Below, piece by piece: positions 1,723 through 61,267 of a DNA stretch of 64,000 nt. Each line of letters begins with the position of its first letter. Within the stretch, counting starts at the first letter, position 1. A model generated the notes under the pieces. The model searched no databases, had not been told where the DNA came from, and worked only from the letters and a program-made list of their open reading frames with translations. The position numbers and the translations under genes are program-made. This DNA comes from an uncultured Rhodospirillaceae bacterium (lineage in GTDB: Bacteria > Pseudomonadota > Alphaproteobacteria > Micavibrionales > UBA2020): positions 1,108-65,107 of the forward strand of contig CAYWIT010000008.1 in assembly GCA_964458415.1 (NCBI GenBank), written 5' to 3'.

Positions 1723-2970
1723 GTGATGCCCGTGGCCGCAAAAGCGAAGAAACTGATAACACAGGGTAATTCAGGGGTAGCGGATGGCCTTGCCGTCTAT
1801 GCCTCCCGTCCGGCCGAAAGCCGGGGGCGCCTCTATGCGGAACCGCCTAGCAAGACACGGGGCGATTTTGAACGTGATCGTGATCGCATCATACACTCGC
1901 AGGCTTTCCGGCGGCTGAAATTCAAGACACAGGTTTTCGTATACCACGAGGGCGATCATTACCGTAGTCGTCTGTCGCATAGCATCGAAGTGGCGCAGGT
2001 CGCACGCTCGCTGTCGCGTCTGCTGAAGATTGACGAGGATCTGGCCGAGACTTGTGCTCTGGCGCATGATCTGGGCCACACGCCGTTCGCGCATGTGGGC
2101 GAGGATGCGCTCAAGGAATGCATGGAGCCTTATGGCGGGTTTGATCACAACGATCAGACATTGCGTGTGGTGACAAGGCTGGAAAAAAAGTATCCGGGGT
2201 TCGATGGCCTGAATCTGACGTGGGAATCTCTGGAGGGGCTGATCAAGCATAACGGCCCCGTCGTTAAAAAAGGACAGAAGAAGCCAAAGCTGGAAATCAC
2301 GCTGGGGGAAATCAGCAAGGTCTGGGATCTCAAGCTGAATACTTATGCGTCTCTGGAAGCGCAGGCTGCGGGTATCGCCGATGATATCGCCTATAACAGC
2401 CATGATCTCGATGATGGGCTCGCCGCCAGATTGTTTACACTTAAAGACCTCGAACAGATCACGTGGGTCGATAAAATCATGCATGCCAAACGCAAGCAGT
2501 ATGCCGGAATTGACGGTTACCGGCTGGAGCAGGAAACCGTGCGCGATGTCATGGGGACCTATGTGATCGATGTGCTGGCGGAAACACGCCGCCGGTTGCA
2601 GGAGCTGGCGCCGACCTGCGCGGATGATATTCGTGCCGCGCGCAGCATGACGGTCAGCATGTCTGACGAGATGAAGAAAAATGACCGTGTCCTGCGTGAT
2701 TTCCTCTGGGCGAATTTCTATCGCCATCATCAGGTCAGCCGCGTGCGTCGCAAGGTTTTCAAGTGTGTGCAGGATTTGTTCGAGGTTTTCATGGAAAACC
2801 GCCGCTGCCTGCCGCCGGAATGGATGATGCAGGCGGAAACCTGCCCCAAGGGATGGGATCCGAAAATCTGGCGGGCGCGGACGATTGCGGATTACATCGC
2901 CAGCATGACGGACCGTTTGGCATTGCTGGAACATCGGGATCTTTTTGATGCCAATCAGGTGCTGAGATGA
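1723..2970 (+). CDS. dgt: dGTP triphosphohydrolase-like HD-domain protein
   Basis: 415 aa. FERDRDRIIHSQAFRRLKFKTQVF, HYRSRLSHSIEVAQVARS and HDLGHTPFAH motifs of the dGTPase family. Stop overlaps the argS start (ATGA). Confidence 0.85.
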   Translation: MMPVAAKAKKLITQGNSGVADGLAVYASRPAESRGRLYAEPPSKTRGDFERDRDRIIHSQAFRRLKFKTQVFVYHEGDHYRSRLSHSIEVAQVARSLSRLLKIDEDLAETCALAHDLGHTPFAHVGEDALKECMEPYGGFDHNDQTLRVVTRLEKKYPGFDGLNLTWESLEGLIKHNGPVVKKGQKKPKLEITLGEISKVWDLKLNTYASLEAQAAGIADDIAYNSHDLDDGLAARLFTLKDLEQITWVDKIMHAKRKQYAGIDGYRLEQETVRDVMGTYVIDVLAETRRRLQELAPTCADDIRAARSMTVSMSDEMKKNDRVLRDFLWANFYRHHQVSRVRRKVFKCVQDLFEVFMENRRCLPPEWMMQAETCPKGWDPKIWRARTIADYIASMTDRLALLEHRDLFDANQVLR

Positions 2971-54133: not shown

Positions 54134-54973
54134 TCAGGCGACGTTCGTCAGAACTTCTTCCAGCTTTTCAGCAGCCTTTTTCTCGTCGATTCTCTCGATG
54201 GCGGCAACTTCACGAGCCAGACGCTCCAGCGCGGCCTGATAAATCTGGCGCTCGCTGTAGGATTGTTCCGACTGGTCGTCTGCCTTGCGAAGATCGCGCA
54301 GAACCTCGGCAATGGCGACGGGGTCTCCTGAGTTGATCTTGGTTTCGTATTCCTGTGCACGACGGCTCCACATAATGCGGCGTGTCTGGGAACGGCCCTG
54401 CAATGTGGCCAGCGCGTCTTTCAGGCGATCCTTGGAAGAAAGCTTGCGGAGACCCGAGGCCTTGACCTTGCTGACGGGGAGCTTGAGACGCATCCGGTCT
54501 TTTTCAAAGCAAATCGTGTAAAGGGTAATTTCCATGCCCGCAATCGTCTGGGTTTCCACGCCTTCAACCAGACCAACGCCATGTGCGGGATAAACAACGA
54601 AATCCCCGGCGACAAAATCAAGTTTTTCGATTTTTTTAACGATCACGGTTTCTTGCACAATAACGGGCGCAGCTTCCTTTTTTTGAACTTTTTCTTTTTT
54701 GATTACAGCGGCTTCCGGTTGTTTTTTCATTTCTACCTTTTTCGGTGCGGCGATAGGCTTTGCAACAGCTTTTGCTACGGACTTCGCTACAGGTTTTGCA
54801 ACAGATTTTGCAACAGGCTTAACCTTCGCCTTTACGACGGGCGCCTTGGCAACGGCTTTTTTGGCGACAACTTTCTTTGCAATAACGGGCGCGGCTTTCT
54901 TCGTTTTTGCGACCGTTTTGACTGCAGCGGGTTTTTTAGCTGCTTTTGCCTTTGTTTTCAATGTCTTTGCCAT
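54134..54973 (-). CDS. carD: CarD/CdnL-family RNA-polymerase-binding regulator with a Lys/Ala-rich (histone-H1-like) N-terminal extension
   Basis: 279 aa. The C-terminal ~165 aa form the CarD_CdnL_TRCF core (GDFVVYPAHGVGLVEGVETQTIAGMEITLY...RRIMWSRRAQEYETKINSGD...). The N-terminal ~110 aa consist of AKKPAA/VAKSVAKP-type repeats. Confidence 0.85.
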   Translation of the reverse strand: MAKTLKTKAKAAKKPAAVKTVAKTKKAAPVIAKKVVAKKAVAKAPVVKAKVKPVAKSVAKPVAKSVAKAVAKPIAAPKKVEMKKQPEAAVIKKEKVQKKEAAPVIVQETVIVKKIEKLDFVAGDFVVYPAHGVGLVEGVETQTIAGMEITLYTICFEKDRMRLKLPVSKVKASGLRKLSSKDRLKDALATLQGRSQTRRIMWSRRAQEYETKINSGDPVAIAEVLRDLRKADDQSEQSYSERQIYQAALERLAREVAAIERIDEKKAAEKLEEVLTNVA

Positions 54974-55215: not shown

Positions 55216-55554
55216 TCAATCCCCTTCACCGGGGTCCGGGCTAAAGAATTTCATTTTGTTCTTCACCTTTTTGAACTCTTCAGCTTCGGGCAGGGCGGGT
55301 TTCTTCCGGGTAATATTCGGCCATTTTCCCATAGAGTATTCACGGTTCAGCTCCAGAAAGGCTTCGCCTTGTGGGTCTGAATCCGCCACGATGGCATCGA
55401 TGGGACATTCCGGAACGCAGACGCCGCAATCAATGCACTCGTCCGGATTGATGACAAGCGTGTTTTCCCCTTCGTAGAAGCAGTCTACCGGGCAGACTTC
55501 AACGCAATCCGTGTATTTACATTTGATGCAGACATCCGTGACGATGTAGGTCAT
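55216..55554 (-). CDS. fdxA: ferredoxin (7Fe, [3Fe-4S][4Fe-4S] FdxA type)
   Basis: 112 aa. [29 protein letters not shown]...[12 protein letters not shown]. Confidence 0.9.
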
Positions 55555-55614: not shown

Positions 55615-56547
55615 CTAGCCCGCGTTAACGATTCTTTGAATCAGCGCTTCTTTTATGGCATCAGCCCTGTCGTTGTCGATCTGGCAGGTTCCGACAGCCT
55701 TGTGGCCGCCGCCGCCGTGTTCCAGCATCAGGCTGCCGACATCCACCTGAGCGGACCTGTTCAGTACGGATTTTCCGACAGCAAAAACCGTATTGACGCC
55801 TTGTTTGCCGGGCATGACATGCATGGAAATGTTTTGTTCGGGGTACATTGCGTAAATTGTAAATCTGTTTGTGACAAAGATTTCCTTTTCATTGCGTAGA
55901 TCAAGGACAAGGAGATTATTGTGAATTTCCGCGCAGGTCTCGATTTGCTTTTTTGCAAGAGGCAGGTGCTTTCTGTACATATGAACGCGTTCGGCGACAT
56001 CAGGGTGATTCAGAATCTCATCCACATTTTTATGTGTGCGCAGAATATCGACGAAATCCATCATTAACTGATAGTTTGAAACGCGGAAATCACGAAACCG
56101 GCCCAGACCGGTACGGTTGTCCATGATGAAGCCAAGCAGGACCCATCCTTGCGGATTCAGGATATCTTCGTGAGATATTTGCGCAGCATCGATTTTATCG
56201 GTCGCGCTCATAAGATCCGCTGTGATATTGGGAAATTTTTCAGCGCCGCCAAAGTGGCGATAGACGACGTGCGCCGCCGAAGGCGCCGTCGGATCGTTGA
56301 TCACATTTGCCGCCTGACCTTTGTTGCGCTCAATTTCGCTGGCGTGGTGGTCAAAAACGATATGCGCTTTCGGGTGATAGGGAAGGTTGGTGATGATGTC
56401 GCGTCCGGTGACTTCAATGGTGCCGTCCTGCATATCCTTGGGGTGGGCATACTTGACCTCATCAATCATGCCGATTTCCCTGAGTAATGCGGCGCAGACA
56501 ATGCCATCCATGTCGCTACGGGTAATAAGACGATATTTCTCCTGCAT
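55615..56547 (-). CDS. DHH-family phosphoesterase-like protein
   Basis: 310 aa. RSDMDGIVCAALL (DHH motif I-like), FDHHASE (DHH) and a C-terminal GGGHKAVGT (DHHA1 GGGH) motif. Confidence 0.7.
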   Translation of the reverse strand: MQEKYRLITRSDMDGIVCAALLREIGMIDEVKYAHPKDMQDGTIEVTGRDIITNLPYHPKAHIVFDHHASEIERNKGQAANVINDPTAPSAAHVVYRHFGGAEKFPNITADLMSATDKIDAAQISHEDILNPQGWVLLGFIMDNRTGLGRFRDFRVSNYQLMMDFVDILRTHKNVDEILNHPDVAERVHMYRKHLPLAKKQIETCAEIHNNLLVLDLRNEKEIFVTNRFTIYAMYPEQNISMHVMPGKQGVNTVFAVGKSVLNRSAQVDVGSLMLEHGGGGHKAVGTCQIDNDRADAIKEALIQRIVNAG

Positions 56548-56705
56548 TATTATCCTTCAAATGTTGCCAAGTTTTCAGGGGATTATAAACTAAATCCAAA
56601 AAATGAAAATACCCTTGGGGCGGAGGAGGCGTGAATAATTTTGAGATATTCATGTTTTCACCATCGTGCCCGACTTGTTGGAAGTCCATGGAGATGCCGC
56701 AATAT

Positions 56706-57071
56706 GTCACCGTTCCCCGCAATTTAGGGGGATACGGCAACCTGTACCTCATGCCACAACAGACAAAGAAGGTCACCGTTCCCCGCAATTTAGGGGGATA
56801 CGGCAACAAGCGCGAAAGAACACAGCTTATCGTGAACGTCACCGTTCCCCGCAATTTAGGGGGATACGGCAACACTATTGGCGATGCATTGACAGAATCA
56901 TCTGTCACCGTTCCCCGCAATTTAGGGGGATACGGCAACGTGCGACATGAACAAGTACGACGCCGAACAGTCACCGTTCCCCGCAATTTAGGGGGATACG
57001 GCAACTTGTCAAACTGCTCATTCCAGTTAGTGATTGTCACCGTTCCCCGCAATTTAGGGGGATACGGCAAC
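56706..57071 (-). CRISPR. CRISPR array: 6 identical 36-nt repeats and 5 spacers of exactly 30 nt
   Basis: The plus-strand repeat is GTCACCGTTCCCCGCAATTTAGGGGGATACGGCAAC. Copies start at 56706, 56772, 56838, 56904, 56970 and 57036, giving a 66-nt period. Spacers lie at 56742..56771, 56808..56837, 56874..56903, 56940..56969 and 57006..57035 and are all unique. The strand assignment (minus, co-directional with the adjacent HEPN gene) is an inference from repeat folding, not certain. Confidence 0.95.
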
Positions 57072-57157
57072 TGGTTCCTTTCAAAGCTTTGTTTCCAAAG
57101 CAGAAAGGCAACCACTCGGACTTACAAAATCCACAAAAGTGAACTAATGCCGATCTA

Positions 57158-58588
57158 TTATGTAGCATTTTTTCCCGCTCGTTGCAAGCCATTGGATTGT
57201 CCGGCGTGTTGCAGTGCCCGCATCCATCCGGCAGCGATTTTGCGGACTGCGCGTCGTCGGTTGACTTCAGTGCCGCTATTTTTCTCCTGTTTTGCCTGCG
57301 CGCGTTTTTCTGCGCTCCAGCGACGAATTTTTTCCGTCTTCGGATGTCCATCGTCAGACGTATGCATGACGGCATGATTTTCGCGGCGCAATAGCCGTTC
57401 GATCTGGTCGCAGAAGGTAGACTTCTGCCCCGTGGGAAGGGAGGCAAGAACTTTGGCGAAAACATCCTCAACTGTCAGGGGGCTCTTGTTATCCTGTGCG
57501 TAAATGCGCCAGAACAACCCGTTATGCGCCAGTGTGTTTCGTATATTGTGCAAATCGGCGTCTTGAATTTTCTCTCCTTTTTTATCCTTCGGCGCGAAAT
57601 CGATATAGTGATGGATGACAGCACCTATGTGCATGGTAAGCATGTAAAGGGGTTCAATGTCGTGCCGAAAGCTGGGTTTTTCCGCATGGTCTGCTGTATA
57701 GATGAGGGCGCGGCTTTTTTTCTGCAGGGGGAGGCCAAGGCATTCGAAAATTGCGCGCAGGTTCTGTGGACCGATAAAGTCATAGCGGCGTTTGAACTGA
57801 AATTCACGATAATCCGTGGGCGATATGCCGAGCGCCCTGTATGACTTGAGCCAGATCGCGGTGTTGTCGGCATCTGTCGCAAGCGCCTTACGGCGTGTTT
57901 TTCCAATCCTCGCGCGTTTTCGTTCCTCCGAAAACATAAGGCGACGGCTCTCGGCGTTTTCCTGCCTGCACCATTCGAAGAGTGTGTGCATGCCGTCAGC
58001 CGCTGCCTGCGCCGTCTTTTCTTTTACGGAGCGGGCTCTCATTTCTAACATGTTGCATATTCCCGGTAAAAGCAGGATGCTAAGCGCTTCGAGCACTTTT
58101 GTATTTTTCTGCGCGTTGAAAGTCTCTCGCTTTCTTTTCCTCTCTGCGTAATGCTCAAGATAATGACGTTTGTCTATCAAGATCTCTATGGCGTCGTTGA
58201 ACTGCTCAAACCGCCAGAAAATACCATGCTGCTGCTTGAAACCATCAGCAAATATTTTTTGCAAGCTTTCGTCCTCTTGCAGTTTCCGCAACAGGGAAAG
58301 GAATCCTTTGTGAAAGATGTCCGTGGTTTTCGTGTGTCGGCACTTCGGGTCAAGAACTGCACTGCGAAAGTGGGCTTTGTTTTTTGGGATGGCCTTTTTG
58401 GCAATACTAAACATTTTTTTGCGGCGGGCCATGGCGCTGCGTGGGAAACCCTGCCAGAACAAAGTTTGCGCATGGGTGCCTGCCAGACGGATAAAGAACA
58501 GCAAGTCCGAGCGGAATACATGATTTTCTTCCAGAGAGGAAAGGTCGATATCTTGCGGTTTCAGGCAATGCGGAACAATTTTTTTCAT
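57158..58588 (-). CDS. candidate miniature single-effector CRISPR RNase: 476-aa basic protein with two HEPN-type R-x4-H motifs (Cas13-like / type VI-like)
   Basis: This is the only ORF between the array and the housekeeping genes. It carries RHYLEH (aa 141-146) and RNTLAH (aa 350-355), both fitting the R[NHQ]xxxH form used by Cas13 HEPN sites. It has several Arg/Lys patches (ERKRKRE, EERKRARIGKTRRK, RRWSAEKRAQAKQEK...NRRRAVRK). The array lies 86 bp downstream on the same strand. The ATG overlaps the stop of the upstream gene (TAATG). No overall family recognised by eye. Confidence 0.65.
   Translation of the reverse strand: MKKIVPHCLKPQDIDLSSLEENHVFRSDLLFFIRLAGTHAQTLFWQGFPRSAMARRKKMFSIAKKAIPKNKAHFRSAVLDPKCRHTKTTDIFHKGFLSLLRKLQEDESLQKIFADGFKQQHGIFWRFEQFNDAIEILIDKRHYLEHYAERKRKRETFNAQKNTKVLEALSILLLPGICNMLEMRARSVKEKTAQAAADGMHTLFEWCRQENAESRRLMFSEERKRARIGKTRRKALATDADNTAIWLKSYRALGISPTDYREFQFKRRYDFIGPQNLRAIFECLGLPLQKKSRALIYTADHAEKPSFRHDIEPLYMLTMHIGAVIHHYIDFAPKDKKGEKIQDADLHNIRNTLAHNGLFWRIYAQDNKSPLTVEDVFAKVLASLPTGQKSTFCDQIERLLRRENHAVMHTSDDGHPKTEKIRRWSAEKRAQAKQEKNSGTEVNRRRAVRKIAAGWMRALQHAGQSNGLQRAGKNAT
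57524..57541 (-). other. HEPN-type motif 2 (R350-N-T-L-A-H355)
   Basis: The complement of 57524..57541 reads CGA AAC ACA CTG GCG CAT. Local context: DLHNIRNTLAHNGLFW. Confidence 0.6.
58151..58168 (-). other. HEPN-type motif 1 (R141-H-Y-L-E-H146)
   Basis: The complement of 58151..58168 reads CGT CAT TAT CTT GAG CAT. Confidence 0.6.
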
Positions 58589-59883
58589 TACAACGTATCG
58601 CGCAGTCTATACCAGAGCATTCCCAGCACAAACAAGGGCTGTTTCAGCAGGTTGCCTCCCGGAAACGGCGCATGTTTAATGCCGGCAAAAACGTCAAACC
58701 GTTCCGCCGTGCCGCTGACGGCTTCGGCAAGGACTTTTCCGAGGATATTGGTGGCGACGACGCCATGTCCGCCAAAGCCGTGGGCAAAATAGACCTGCGG
58801 TGTTATGCGGCCGAGGTGGGGCATGCGGTTGATGGTAAATTCGATGGGCCCACACCAGCAGTGGTCAATACGCGTCATGGCCAGCGCCGGAAAGAGTTCA
58901 ACCATGCGTTTGCGCAAGCGGGTGTCCTCACCGGGGTAATCCTTGCCGCTATAATTGCAGTTACCGCCAAAGAGAATGCGCTTGTCGGCGGACAGCCGGT
59001 AATAATTCATGATAAAATTCGCATCGATCACGGCGATGTCGCGGCGGAAAATATTTTGCGCCAGACGTTCGCCCAGCGGCTCGGTAGCGATCATATGCGC
59101 GGTGGCCGTAATGGATTTTTTCTGCATGACATCAAGTCCGTTAATGCCGATCGCGCCGGCCAGAATAACGAATTTGGCATTCACAAGGCCGTGCGCTGTT
59201 TTGACTCTGGGCGCAGGGCCGCTTGTATCCAGTGCCGTGGCAGGGCAGCCGTCATAAATTTTACAGCCAAGTTTCTGTGCGGCCTGTGCAATGCCCAGCG
59301 CGTAATTCAGCGGGTGGAAATGCCCTGCTTTCATATCCAGCATGCCGCCTGTATATTTCTCGCAATTGATATAGGCTTGTGTTTCTTTTTGGTCGAGCAG
59401 TTGGAAGTCGTTATGGCCGACGGCTTTCCAGTCATTGATTTCACTTTGCAAGGCGCTGATATGGCCTTGGTTCATGGCGGCAGTTAAATGGCCGAATTTC
59501 AGGTCGCATTGAATGTCATGCTCCATGATCCGGCGCAGGATAAGATCAATGCCTTCCAGCGAGATATCCAGCAGGGTTTTGGCTTGTCCGATGCCAAATT
59601 GGCGGATCAGCGTTGCCGTGTCCATGGCAAACCCGCGCTGCAAATGTCCGCCATTCCGGCCCGAAGCGGAAGAGGCAATAGTGCCGCTTTCCAATAATAT
59701 GACGGAATAACCTTTGCGGGAAAGCTCCAATGCAGCGGAAAGTCCTGTAAAACCGCCGCCAATGATGCAAACATCACAGTTGACCTCGCTCCGGAGGGAG
59801 CCTAGAGTCGCGACAAGGCGATTGGTCGTCAGAGCATACCATGGACTTGTGTATTCTTTTACATTTTCATATTTCTTTGGCAT
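58588..59883 (-). CDS. FAD-dependent oxidoreductase (gamma-glutamylputrescine oxidase PuuB-like)
   Basis: Start at the internal ATG (MPKKYENVKEYTSPWYAL...). CDVCIIGGGFTGLSAALEL dinucleotide-binding motif. The overall pattern resembles E. coli PuuB. The longer track ORF (to 60024) would overlap the divergent gene. Confidence 0.8.
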   Translation of the reverse strand: MPKKYENVKEYTSPWYALTTNRLVATLGSLRSEVNCDVCIIGGGFTGLSAALELSRKGYSVILLESGTIASSASGRNGGHLQRGFAMDTATLIRQFGIGQAKTLLDISLEGIDLILRRIMEHDIQCDLKFGHLTAAMNQGHISALQSEINDWKAVGHNDFQLLDQKETQAYINCEKYTGGMLDMKAGHFHPLNYALGIAQAAQKLGCKIYDGCPATALDTSGPAPRVKTAHGLVNAKFVILAGAIGINGLDVMQKKSITATAHMIATEPLGERLAQNIFRRDIAVIDANFIMNYYRLSADKRILFGGNCNYSGKDYPGEDTRLRKRMVELFPALAMTRIDHCWCGPIEFTINRMPHLGRITPQVYFAHGFGGHGVVATNILGKVLAEAVSGTAERFDVFAGIKHAPFPGGNLLKQPLFVLGMLWYRLRDTL

Positions 59884-59917
59884 GATGACGTTTCCCGCAA
59901 ACGGAGTGGAGTTATTC

Positions 59918-61267
59918 ATGGACAAGCTTGAACAGTTTATCCGAGAACACAAGATAACGGAAGTTGAATGCCTTGTCCCTGATATGTCCGGCGTGGCGCG
60001 GGGCAAGATTTTGCCCGCCGACAAGCTATTACGTATTCTGCGGGAACGTGGAATGCCGTTGCCGGAAAGCGTTTTTGTCCAGACGGTGACGGGGGGTTAT
60101 CCCCTTAACGATGCCGATCTGATCTCGCCTACTTTTGGCGATGTTTATATGGTGCCGGATGTCAAAACAGTCCGGCTGGTGCCGTGGTACAAAGAGCCTA
60201 CGGCGCAGATTATTTGCGATGCTTATAACGCCGATGATACGCCGGTAAATATTTCCAGCCGTTATATCCTGAAAAAAATTGTCTTGGAATATGTCAAACT
60301 TGGTTTGACGCCTGTTGTTGCGCCGGAGCTGGAGTTTTATCTCGTGGCGGTCAATACGGATCCCGATTTGCCGTTGCAACCGCCTGTCGGTCGTTCGGGA
60401 CGGCAGGAAAGCGGGCGTCAGGCCTATGGCATTGATGCGGTCAATGAATTTGATCCGATTTTTGAAGATGTCTATGATTATTGCGAATTGCAGAACGTGG
60501 ATATTGACACCTTAAGTCATGAAGCGGGCGCGGCACAGATCGAAGTCAACTTCAATCATGGTGATCCTGTCGAGTTGGCGGATCAGGCTTTTCTGTTCAA
60601 GCGCACGACGCGTGAAGTGGCGATCCGTCACGGTGTTTATGCGACCTTTATGGCGCAGCCGATGCGGACCGAGCCCGGCAGCGCCATGCATATCCACCAG
60701 AGTCTTGTTGATATAAAAACCGGAAAAAATGCCTTTGCGAATGACGATGGCAGCGATACGGAATTATTCCGCCATTATATCGGCGGGTTGCAAAAATATC
60801 TGCCGTTCGCTTTTCCGCTATTTGCGCCGAACGTCAATTCCTATCGCCGTTTCGGGCATAAGGAAACGGATTCTCCTGTCAACGTCGAATGGGGCATCGA
60901 CAATCGCACGGCAGGCCTGCGCGTTCCTGTGGCCAAACCGGAAAACCGCCGCGTGGAAAACCGGTTGCCCGGCGCGGACGGCAATCCTTATCTTTCGATT
61001 GCGGCTACGCTGGCCTGCGGGCTTCTGGGGATCATGGAAAAGGTCGAACCGAGCGAGCAGATTAAAGGCAATGCCTATAAGAAAGGCCATACTTTGCCCT
61101 ATCAGCTGACGGATGCGCTGAAGCTGATGCTGGATTGCAAGCCGTTGCAGGAGGTGCTGGGCCCGCATTTTGTCAAGACGCTGGCGTCGATCAAGGAGAC
61201 GGAGTTCAAGGCCTATAACGCTGTGATCTCTTCATGGGAACGCGAGAATCTGCTGTTGAATGTCTGA
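59918..61267 (+). CDS. glutamine synthetase family protein (gamma-glutamylpolyamine synthetase PuuA-like)
   Basis: Start at the ATG at 59918 (MDKLEQFIREHKITEVECLVPDMSGVARGK), after GGAGTGGAG. GS catalytic motifs (PELEFYL, HEAGAAQIEVNF, GSAMHIHQSL, NSYRRF, NRTAGLRVP, ENRLPGADGNPYL). Confidence 0.8.
   Translation: MDKLEQFIREHKITEVECLVPDMSGVARGKILPADKLLRILRERGMPLPESVFVQTVTGGYPLNDADLISPTFGDVYMVPDVKTVRLVPWYKEPTAQIICDAYNADDTPVNISSRYILKKIVLEYVKLGLTPVVAPELEFYLVAVNTDPDLPLQPPVGRSGRQESGRQAYGIDAVNEFDPIFEDVYDYCELQNVDIDTLSHEAGAAQIEVNFNHGDPVELADQAFLFKRTTREVAIRHGVYATFMAQPMRTEPGSAMHIHQSLVDIKTGKNAFANDDGSDTELFRHYIGGLQKYLPFAFPLFAPNVNSYRRFGHKETDSPVNVEWGIDNRTAGLRVPVAKPENRRVENRLPGADGNPYLSIAATLACGLLGIMEKVEPSEQIKGNAYKKGHTLPYQLTDALKLMLDCKPLQEVLGPHFVKTLASIKETEFKAYNAVISSWERENLLLNV

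Follow-up and report, generated by a model that had tools for sequence, protein, structure and literature searches.

Within the 64,000-nucleotide (nt) stretch of DNA analysed here (the window), the segment at 56706..57071 is very probably the array of a type VI clustered regularly interspaced short palindromic repeats (CRISPR) system built on the effector Cas13an. In this reading the array is transcribed from the minus strand, has its leader on the side of the cas13an gene and supplies its repeat as the 3' handle of each guide. The evidence comes from direct observations of repeat anatomy, repeat fold, homology, synteny, leader conservation, hairpin covariation and G-U asymmetry. A preliminary description of the segment had proposed that the repeat folds into a 13-bp bulged hairpin only when transcribed from the minus strand, and that the array runs in the direction of the adjacent HEPN gene.

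The Cas13an family, an 'ancestral' type VI clade, was described by Yoon et al. (Science 2024; PMC12165695), with sizes of 429-577 amino acids (aa) in the text and a 421-aa Cas13an9 added in Table S3. Other Cas13 proteins typically comprise 800-1400 aa, and Foldseek and hidden Markov model (HMM) searches do not link Cas13an to them (PMC12165695). Published Cas13an loci consist of the gene and an array, without cas1/cas2 in cis, while type II cas1-cas2 genes occur in trans in 4/10 Cas13an genomes; the array usually lies directly downstream of the gene (legend of Fig. S2; PMC12165695). RNA-guided ribonuclease (RNase) activity and HEPN-dependent cleavage of the precursor CRISPR RNA (pre-crRNA) are known for Cas13an2 and Cas13an8, and the biochemistry was done with 36-nt repeats and 30-nt spacers (PMC12165695). 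According to small-RNA sequencing of Cas13an guides, the spacer precedes the repeat, an order seen elsewhere only in Cas13b (PMC12165695). The HEPN site cuts the pre-crRNA within the spacer, at a point 23-24 nt before the repeat begins (PMC12165695). Cas13an8 was picked in that study for its robust in vivo activity: a working guide oligonucleotide consists of a 30-nt spacer followed by GTTGCCGTATCCCCCTTAACTGCGGGGAACGGTGAC, and spacer-5'/repeat-3' guides gave both knock-down of green fluorescent protein (GFP) and protection against phage T4 (PMC12165695). PbCas13an and SpCas13an are further orthologs (bioRxiv 10.1101/2025.09.30.679098).

Results

The gene beside the array encodes a Cas13an ortholog

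The gene next to the array (57158..58588, minus strand) encodes a protein of 476 aa and was identified as cas13an by homology to Cas13an8. Over its full length, the protein is 61% identical to MBW7837953.1 (P0004; 290/475 residues, E = 1.3e-189, coverage 100%), encoded on contig JACFMS010000047; a check of the sequence confirmed that P0004 is the Cas13an8 of Table S3 in PMC12165695. The translation of the window gene contains two catalytic HEPN motifs of the form R-x4-H, RHYLEH (HEPN1, R141...H146; 58151..58168, minus strand) and RNTLAH (HEPN2, R350...H355; 57524..57541, minus strand). In an alignment of 13 homologs, R141, R350, A354 and H355 were invariant and H146 nearly so. The nearest database protein, MFH1157796.1 from a metagenome-assembled genome (MAG), shares 65% identity, and identity to the Cas13an1/an10 clade is 32-35%. 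Judged by its sequence, the protein is a new ortholog of Cas13an, absent from the 13 published orthologs, and belongs to the clade of Cas13an8.

Only 13 relatives were found among 5.8 billion proteins, and when 1.84 billion representatives were searched with a profile, the 86 clusters (50% identity) obtained spanned 55-692 aa, with no large Cas13 among them. Comparison of the effector with Pfam and PADLOC gave nothing significant (HEPN_Apea and NsnC appeared below threshold only and were uninformative), PDB sequences gave no match, and a search of IMG/VR for phage-encoded relatives found none. A confident AlphaFold2 (AF2) model reached a predicted local distance difference test (pLDDT) score of 80.8 and a predicted template modelling (pTM) score of 0.82; its best Foldseek hit in PDB had E = 0.37, in line with the lack of Foldseek links to other Cas13 proteins noted in PMC12165695. 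A C-terminal tail, AGQxxGLxxAGKNA(I/T) (residues ~463-476; 57158-57200), is common to the Cas13an8 clade and absent from the Cas13an1 clade, and the DNA coding for it is highly conserved and continuous with the conserved leader.

The closest characterized counterpart is the Cas13an8 locus itself, from a Sphingomonadales MAG. Its effector has 474 aa against 476 aa in the window and shares both HEPN motifs; its array begins 85 nt past the stop codon against 86 nt, on the gene strand and behind a conserved leader. It likewise has 30-31-nt spacers (repeat spacing 66-67 nt) and no cas genes in cis. The two repeats agree at 34/36 positions, including the same stem, the same bulge and both G-U wobbles, and differ in two loop bases at positions 17 (A17/T) and 20 (T20/C). 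Further differences are the 39% of protein residues that are not shared, the ten repeats with a degenerate last copy in Cas13an8 against six identical ones in the window, and the neighbouring genes, which in the window include an oxidoreductase gene overlapped by the cas13an start codon.

The locus also resembles the family as a whole: it pairs a miniature two-HEPN effector (421-577 aa across the family) with an array as its only partner, its hairpin repeat has the form GTT...AC, and its guides are predicted to follow the same spacer-5'/repeat-3' order. On the basis of its sequence, the locus appears to agree with Cas13an in every defining feature that could be tested.

The repeat hairpin is strand-specific in its terminal base pairs

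The array on the minus strand comprises six 36-nt repeats (56706-56741, 56772-56807, 56838-56873, 56904-56939, 56970-57005 and 57036-57071) at a period of 66 nt, with five 30-nt spacers between them, and was also reported by Tandem Repeats Finder (TRF). The repeat reads GTCACCGTTCCCCGCAATTTAGGGGGATACGGCAAC on the plus strand and GTTGCCGTATCCCCCTAAATTGCGGGGAACGGTGAC in minus-strand, CRISPR RNA (crRNA) sense; its 36-nt core is the same in 6/6 copies. A search for a repeat remnant past both array ends found none (the best local score, 14, compares with a mean of 12.1 for shuffles), in keeping with the earlier statement that six identical repeats leave no degeneration clue to polarity within the window.

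A script verified every base pair previously listed for the minus-strand repeat. Positions 1-8 form pairs with 29-36, two of them the wobbles U3-G34 and G4-U33; A9 bulges out; and the pairing of 10-14 with 24-28 closes a 9-nt loop. Scored as drawn, this 13-bp bulged hairpin has an energy of -17.7 kcal/mol. RNAfold gave the minus-strand repeat RNA a minimum free energy (MFE) of -19.2 kcal/mol (z = -4.72; 0/200 shuffles equally stable), and the MFE structure is the same helix with one added pair, C15-G22. The plus-strand RNA had an MFE of -14.4 kcal/mol (z = -3.14; 3/200 shuffles equally stable) in a 9-bp structure with four unpaired nt at either end. The terminal stem is therefore broken on the plus strand, as the preliminary description had it, but its word "only" holds for the terminal 4 bp and not for the 9-bp core, which formed on both strands. 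Strand-specificity is limited to the terminal four base pairs of the hairpin. Forcing the full helix onto the plus strand gave an energy that is meaningless, its pairs being non-canonical, and this value was not used.

At the gathering threshold, Rfam reported only three transfer RNAs elsewhere in the window. A permissive Rfam search produced plus-strand matches to CRISPR-DR10 of 14-18 bits against a gathering threshold of 39 bits, which we rejected as evidence of orientation. Two open reading frames (ORFs) that cross the array, of 199 aa (56516-57115, minus strand) and 248 aa (56631-57377, plus strand), contain the repeated peptide VTVPRNLGGYGN and are repeat artefacts, not genes. Spacer 5 and the A/T-rich repeat loop together make a promoter-like TTGACA-16-TAAATT at 56985-57012 (minus strand). 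Repeat loops are A/T-rich in all orthologs, and promoters may lie inside the array, as in type II-C arrays.

G-U asymmetry is found across the family

The fold comparison covered 21 distinct repeat types (8 from PMC12165695, the others from related loci), each in both orientations. Repeat RNA in gene sense was more stable in 19/21 types, by 0.6 to 12.9 kcal/mol; in the loci L009 and L021 the antisense repeat folded better, by about 3.5 kcal/mol. In a gapless alignment of the 21 types, a 14-pair helix was 86.7% paired, against 41-53% in slid controls, and 9/14 helix pairs showed compensatory changes; the observed values were reached by 0/500 shuffles. The two wobbles of the window repeat are the commonest states at their positions, U3-G34 occurring in 14/21 types and G4-U33 in 12/21. 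Summed over the whole helix, G-U pairs number 46 when the 21 types are read in gene sense and 4 when they are read in antisense. The G-U strand asymmetry is a family-wide property and not a peculiarity of the window array, and it predicts that the array is read in the cas13an direction, in agreement with the layout of the Cas13an family.

Related loci place the leader beside the gene

To assess polarity, the Cas13an8 locus in its native context was examined along with some 25 further related loci. Among the 14 distinct loci with a detectable array, 12 have it downstream of the gene and on the gene strand. The intervening gap is 76-119 nt long; members of the close clade have 85-86 nt and the window 86 nt, and the native Cas13an8 array begins 85 bp past the stop codon, on the gene strand. 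The two exceptions, L009 (1387-1476) and L023 (2603-2691), have the array upstream of the gene, and distant branches may differ in where the array lies and which way it runs. The earlier proposal that the array follows the direction of the HEPN gene is supported by this layout and by the working Cas13an8 guide, whose repeat matches the minus-strand form of the window repeat except at two loop bases.

Decay of repeats in the orthologs provides a clue to polarity that the window's own array lacks. The last repeat of the Cas13an8 locus ends in GAT instead of GAC, L004 has a mutated second repeat with a decayed remnant past it, and the last repeats of L013 and L014 are mutated. Mutated or decayed repeats occurred only on the gene-distal side (L001 7107-7142, L004 6587-6690, L013 and L014). 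The 86-bp gap had been assigned to the leader side, and this assignment gains from both the gene-distal position of degenerate repeats and the conservation of the gap in length and sequence among orthologs.

The leader contains a conserved box and a covarying hairpin

The 86-nt leader (57072..57157, minus strand) extends from the cas13an stop codon to the first repeat and is conserved in orthologs, as seen by alignment. It contains a conserved box, TAAGTCC (57118..57124, minus strand), some 45-50 nt before the first repeat. TAAGTCC-like boxes, with small variations, recur far outside the close clade, in 11 loci with proteins that share 23-65% identity with that of the window. Between the box and the repeat, folding and alifold delineated a 43-nt hairpin (57072..57114, minus strand), UGGUUgCCUUUC...GAAAGGaACCA around GCUUUG-GAAA-CAAAGC, whose 3' arm adjoins the first repeat; the hairpin as a whole fills the spacer slot of that repeat. 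Leader and first repeat together fold at -50.1 kcal/mol (z -5.85), and the alifold consensus of the leader stem has 11 pairs, 8 of them with compensatory changes. Loci with both elements are the window (57072-57124, minus strand), L001, L004, L005, L010, L013-L016, L021 and L024.

The words "leader" and "promoter" are absent from the main text of PMC12165695. We tentatively raise the possibility, at present a doubtful one, that Cas13an arrays bear an undescribed conserved leader module consisting of a TAAGTCC box and a covarying spacer-slot hairpin stacked on the first repeat. Possible roles of such a module are to set the transcription start or the first processing site, to mask a leader-derived pseudo-guide, or to dock a Cas1-Cas2 integrase that the system borrows in trans.

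Just past the cas13an stop codon, a further hairpin, GUUCAC-UUUU-GUGGAU, is followed by UUUUGU (window 57129-57144, minus strand). It has counterparts with changed stems in L001, L004 and L005, and L004 reads TTGACA-17-TAAGTC at this region. The hairpin may act as a weak terminator or belong to the spacer of a promoter; the consensus scan called neither.

Two spacers match viral contigs

BLAST of the whole array found no match among INPHARED phages and chance-level matches only among PLSDB plasmids; the arrays of L008 and L001 gave nothing useful against phages. In exact 20-mer scans of IMG/VR, spacers 1, 2 and 3 were unmatched, as was the first segment of spacer 5 that was scanned. Spacer 5, the leader-proximal one (57006..57035, minus strand), matches the 43-kb viral contig IMGVR_UViG_3300021318_000156 at 27/30 positions (L035 8586-8615), where the protospacer is located within an extended series of ORFs on one strand. 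This match suggests a recent acquisition, and the occurrence of the best viral match on the leader-proximal spacer fits the leader assignment.

Spacer 4 (56940..56969, minus strand) matches three related IMG/VR contigs, two of 5.4-6.0 kb and a third of 40 kb represented by a 1.4-kb piece, L033 (L032-L034), at 25/30 positions (20 contiguous). Its protospacer, a match estimated to be only marginally above chance, falls inside a 255-aa ORF in a same-strand ORF run, beside a DUF6712 protein. The sense strand of this ORF equals plus-strand spacer 4. A minus-strand guide would be antisense to the messenger RNA (mRNA), so that the orientation fits such a guide. A function for the targeted viral ORFs was sought with PHROGs and Pfam, and none was assigned.

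Genomic neighbourhood

The genes flanking the array, which occupy 60024 to 55216, are all encoded by the minus strand. A flavin adenine dinucleotide (FAD)-dependent oxidoreductase gene (60024..58588) precedes cas13an, while a DHH-family phosphoesterase gene (56547..55615) and a ferredoxin gene (55554..55216) lie past the array. The oxidoreductase stop codon overlaps the cas13an start codon in a TAATG (58586..58590, minus strand), which suggests that cas13an is co-transcribed with a metabolic gene. At this position the orthologs have 112-645 bp instead. With all flanking genes on the minus strand and the start/stop overlap in place, read-through would also yield minus-strand RNA of the array.

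The window is unremarkable in GC content, and its remainder is housekeeping in character (SMC, Lon, ClpX, RpoH-like and CarD-like genes). Among 30 further window ORFs, Pfam and PADLOC found no Cas match, including cas9, cas1 and cas2, and the sole ORF of >1000 aa encodes SMC. Outside the array, the 64-kb window contained no anti-repeat (no 36-mer with >=22/36 and no half-repeat with >=15/18 matches). PADLOC strongly matched 1723-2970 (plus strand) to dGTPase (E = 1.4e-102); the gene probably encodes the housekeeping dGTP triphosphohydrolase and is not one devoted to defence. A 12/24-nt tandem repeat at 54755-54817 lies in the Lys/Ala-rich N-terminal region of the CarD-like protein (54134..54973, minus strand).

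Discussion

Among the alternatives, the one that survives best accepts a Cas13an system in the orientation given here and takes it to be inactive, a small relic array fused to a metabolic operon. Five spacers only, three of them unmatched, the lack of cas1/cas2 among the window ORFs scanned and the overlap of the cas13an start with the stop codon of the upstream gene would all suit a relic. Against this stand six repeats that are all identical, a full-length ORF with both HEPN motifs intact, a conserved leader and a leader-proximal spacer with a 27/30 viral match, and we regard inactivity as unlikely.

A second alternative concerns the strand: transcription and processing of the array might use the plus strand, or both, so that guides carry plus-strand spacers. 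Three results weigh against minus-strand guides and deserve to be set out together. The 9-bp hairpin core also forms in plus-strand RNA. The consensus scan called no sigma-70-like promoter on the minus strand of the 86-nt leader. Finally, the sense strand of the viral gene at the spacer 5 protospacer equals minus-strand spacer 5, which would leave the predicted guide unable to pair with the mRNA; as mRNA, this 27/30 protospacer would be targetable only by a plus-strand guide. A weak promoter-like TTGCCA-16-TAAACT (56564-56591, plus strand) lies upstream of the array for plus-strand transcription, and the sole Rfam matches, the sub-threshold ones to CRISPR-DR10, are on the plus strand as well, although they do not serve as evidence of orientation.

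Other results oppose plus-strand guides. The Cas13an8 repeat, with an identical stem, functions as GTTG...GTGAC, the G-U pairs of the family lie mainly in gene sense (46 vs 4), and leader conservation together with distal repeat decay in the orthologs puts the leader beside the gene. The plus-strand promoter-like site scores only 9/12, and such sites occur near the shuffle rate (4 against 2.4 expected). The protospacer comparison rests on n = 2, one each way, with the orientation of spacer 4 (weak match) opposite to that of spacer 5 (strong match). Acquisition by type VI systems with a borrowed Cas1-Cas2 ignores the strand: 46% of fresh VI-B spacers target mRNA, and a bias emerges only after selection, although the natural VI-B arrays of the same study were mRNA-biased (PMC8092290). 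Strand-blind acquisition of this kind can explain the orientation of spacer 5. The consensus scan also called no canonical terminator on the minus strand of the gap, and because neither a terminator nor a sigma-70 promoter was called there, co-transcription of cas13an and its array is plausible from the sequence. Overall, we consider plus-strand guides improbable, more so than inactivity of the system.

The remaining two alternatives assign the array to other effectors, and both are very hard to sustain. The preliminary description had compared the repeat, with its GTTG start, AC end and 3' handle, to Cas13b-type systems. The handle was upheld by the small-RNA sequencing of Cas13an (PMC12165695); the family was not, the system being Cas13an instead. 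The likeness to Cas13b (VI-B, including Cas13X/Y/bt) is real and extends to the 36-nt repeat and 30-nt spacers. The window effector is, however, under half the size of Cas13b (~1100 aa, with compact variants of ~775 aa), shows no detectable sequence or Foldseek similarity to it and is not accompanied by csx27/csx28; Cas13an, moreover, differs in processing pre-crRNA via its HEPN site, with a cut inside the spacer. The locus thus lacks the effector size and the profile link that mark Cas13b, no Pfam or PADLOC Cas13b model matches the effector, and its 476 aa (against 800-1400 aa in other Cas13 proteins), the profile search and the 61% identity to Cas13an8 together refute membership of that family.

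Equally implausible is the idea that the array is a type II-C-like orphan used by a Cas9 from another part of the genome, with the HEPN gene as an unrelated neighbour: the 36/30 geometry is typical of type II-C and type II cas1-cas2 genes do accompany Cas13an in trans in 4/10 genomes, yet the repeat is strongly self-complementary, unlike repeats that depend on a trans-activating CRISPR RNA (tracrRNA), the locus departs from a type II array in having neither anti-repeat nor cas9 in the window, the gene-leader-array unit is kept down to about 23% protein identity, and orthologs have been shown experimentally to use such arrays (PMC12165695).

For the Cas13an system on the minus strand, we infer transcription direction, processing, activity and trans-adaptation from the orthologs, and by analogy with them the following course may be proposed. 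The array would be transcribed on the minus strand, with transcription starting in the leader or reading through from the upstream gene and cas13an. In each guide, a 30-nt spacer would form the 5' part and the 36-nt repeat the 3' handle, the repeat folding into a GUUG...GUGAC hairpin to be bound by Cas13an, with two terminal wobbles unique to the minus orientation. As in Cas13an2, the HEPN site would cut the pre-crRNA in the spacer, about 23-24 nt before the repeat, and pairing of the spacer with a phage transcript would trigger cleavage of RNA in cis and collaterally. New spacers probably enter at the leader end via a Cas1-Cas2 module encoded elsewhere in the genome.

The strand-specific hairpin matches existing knowledge of Cas13an and does not overturn current understanding of the family. 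No known RNA-guided RNases are smaller than the Cas13an proteins, which are sought as compact tools for targeting RNA. Published orthologs number only about 15, and the window contributes a further intact one, of the Cas13an8 clade, with a guide design that can be read from its sequence as a 30-nt spacer followed by GTTGCCGTATCCCCCTAAATTGCGGGGAACGGTGAC. For the family, the G-U strand asymmetry orients the arrays in 19/21 repeat types, and the comparison of loci exposes a conserved structured leader as a candidate for a role in expression or trans-adaptation.

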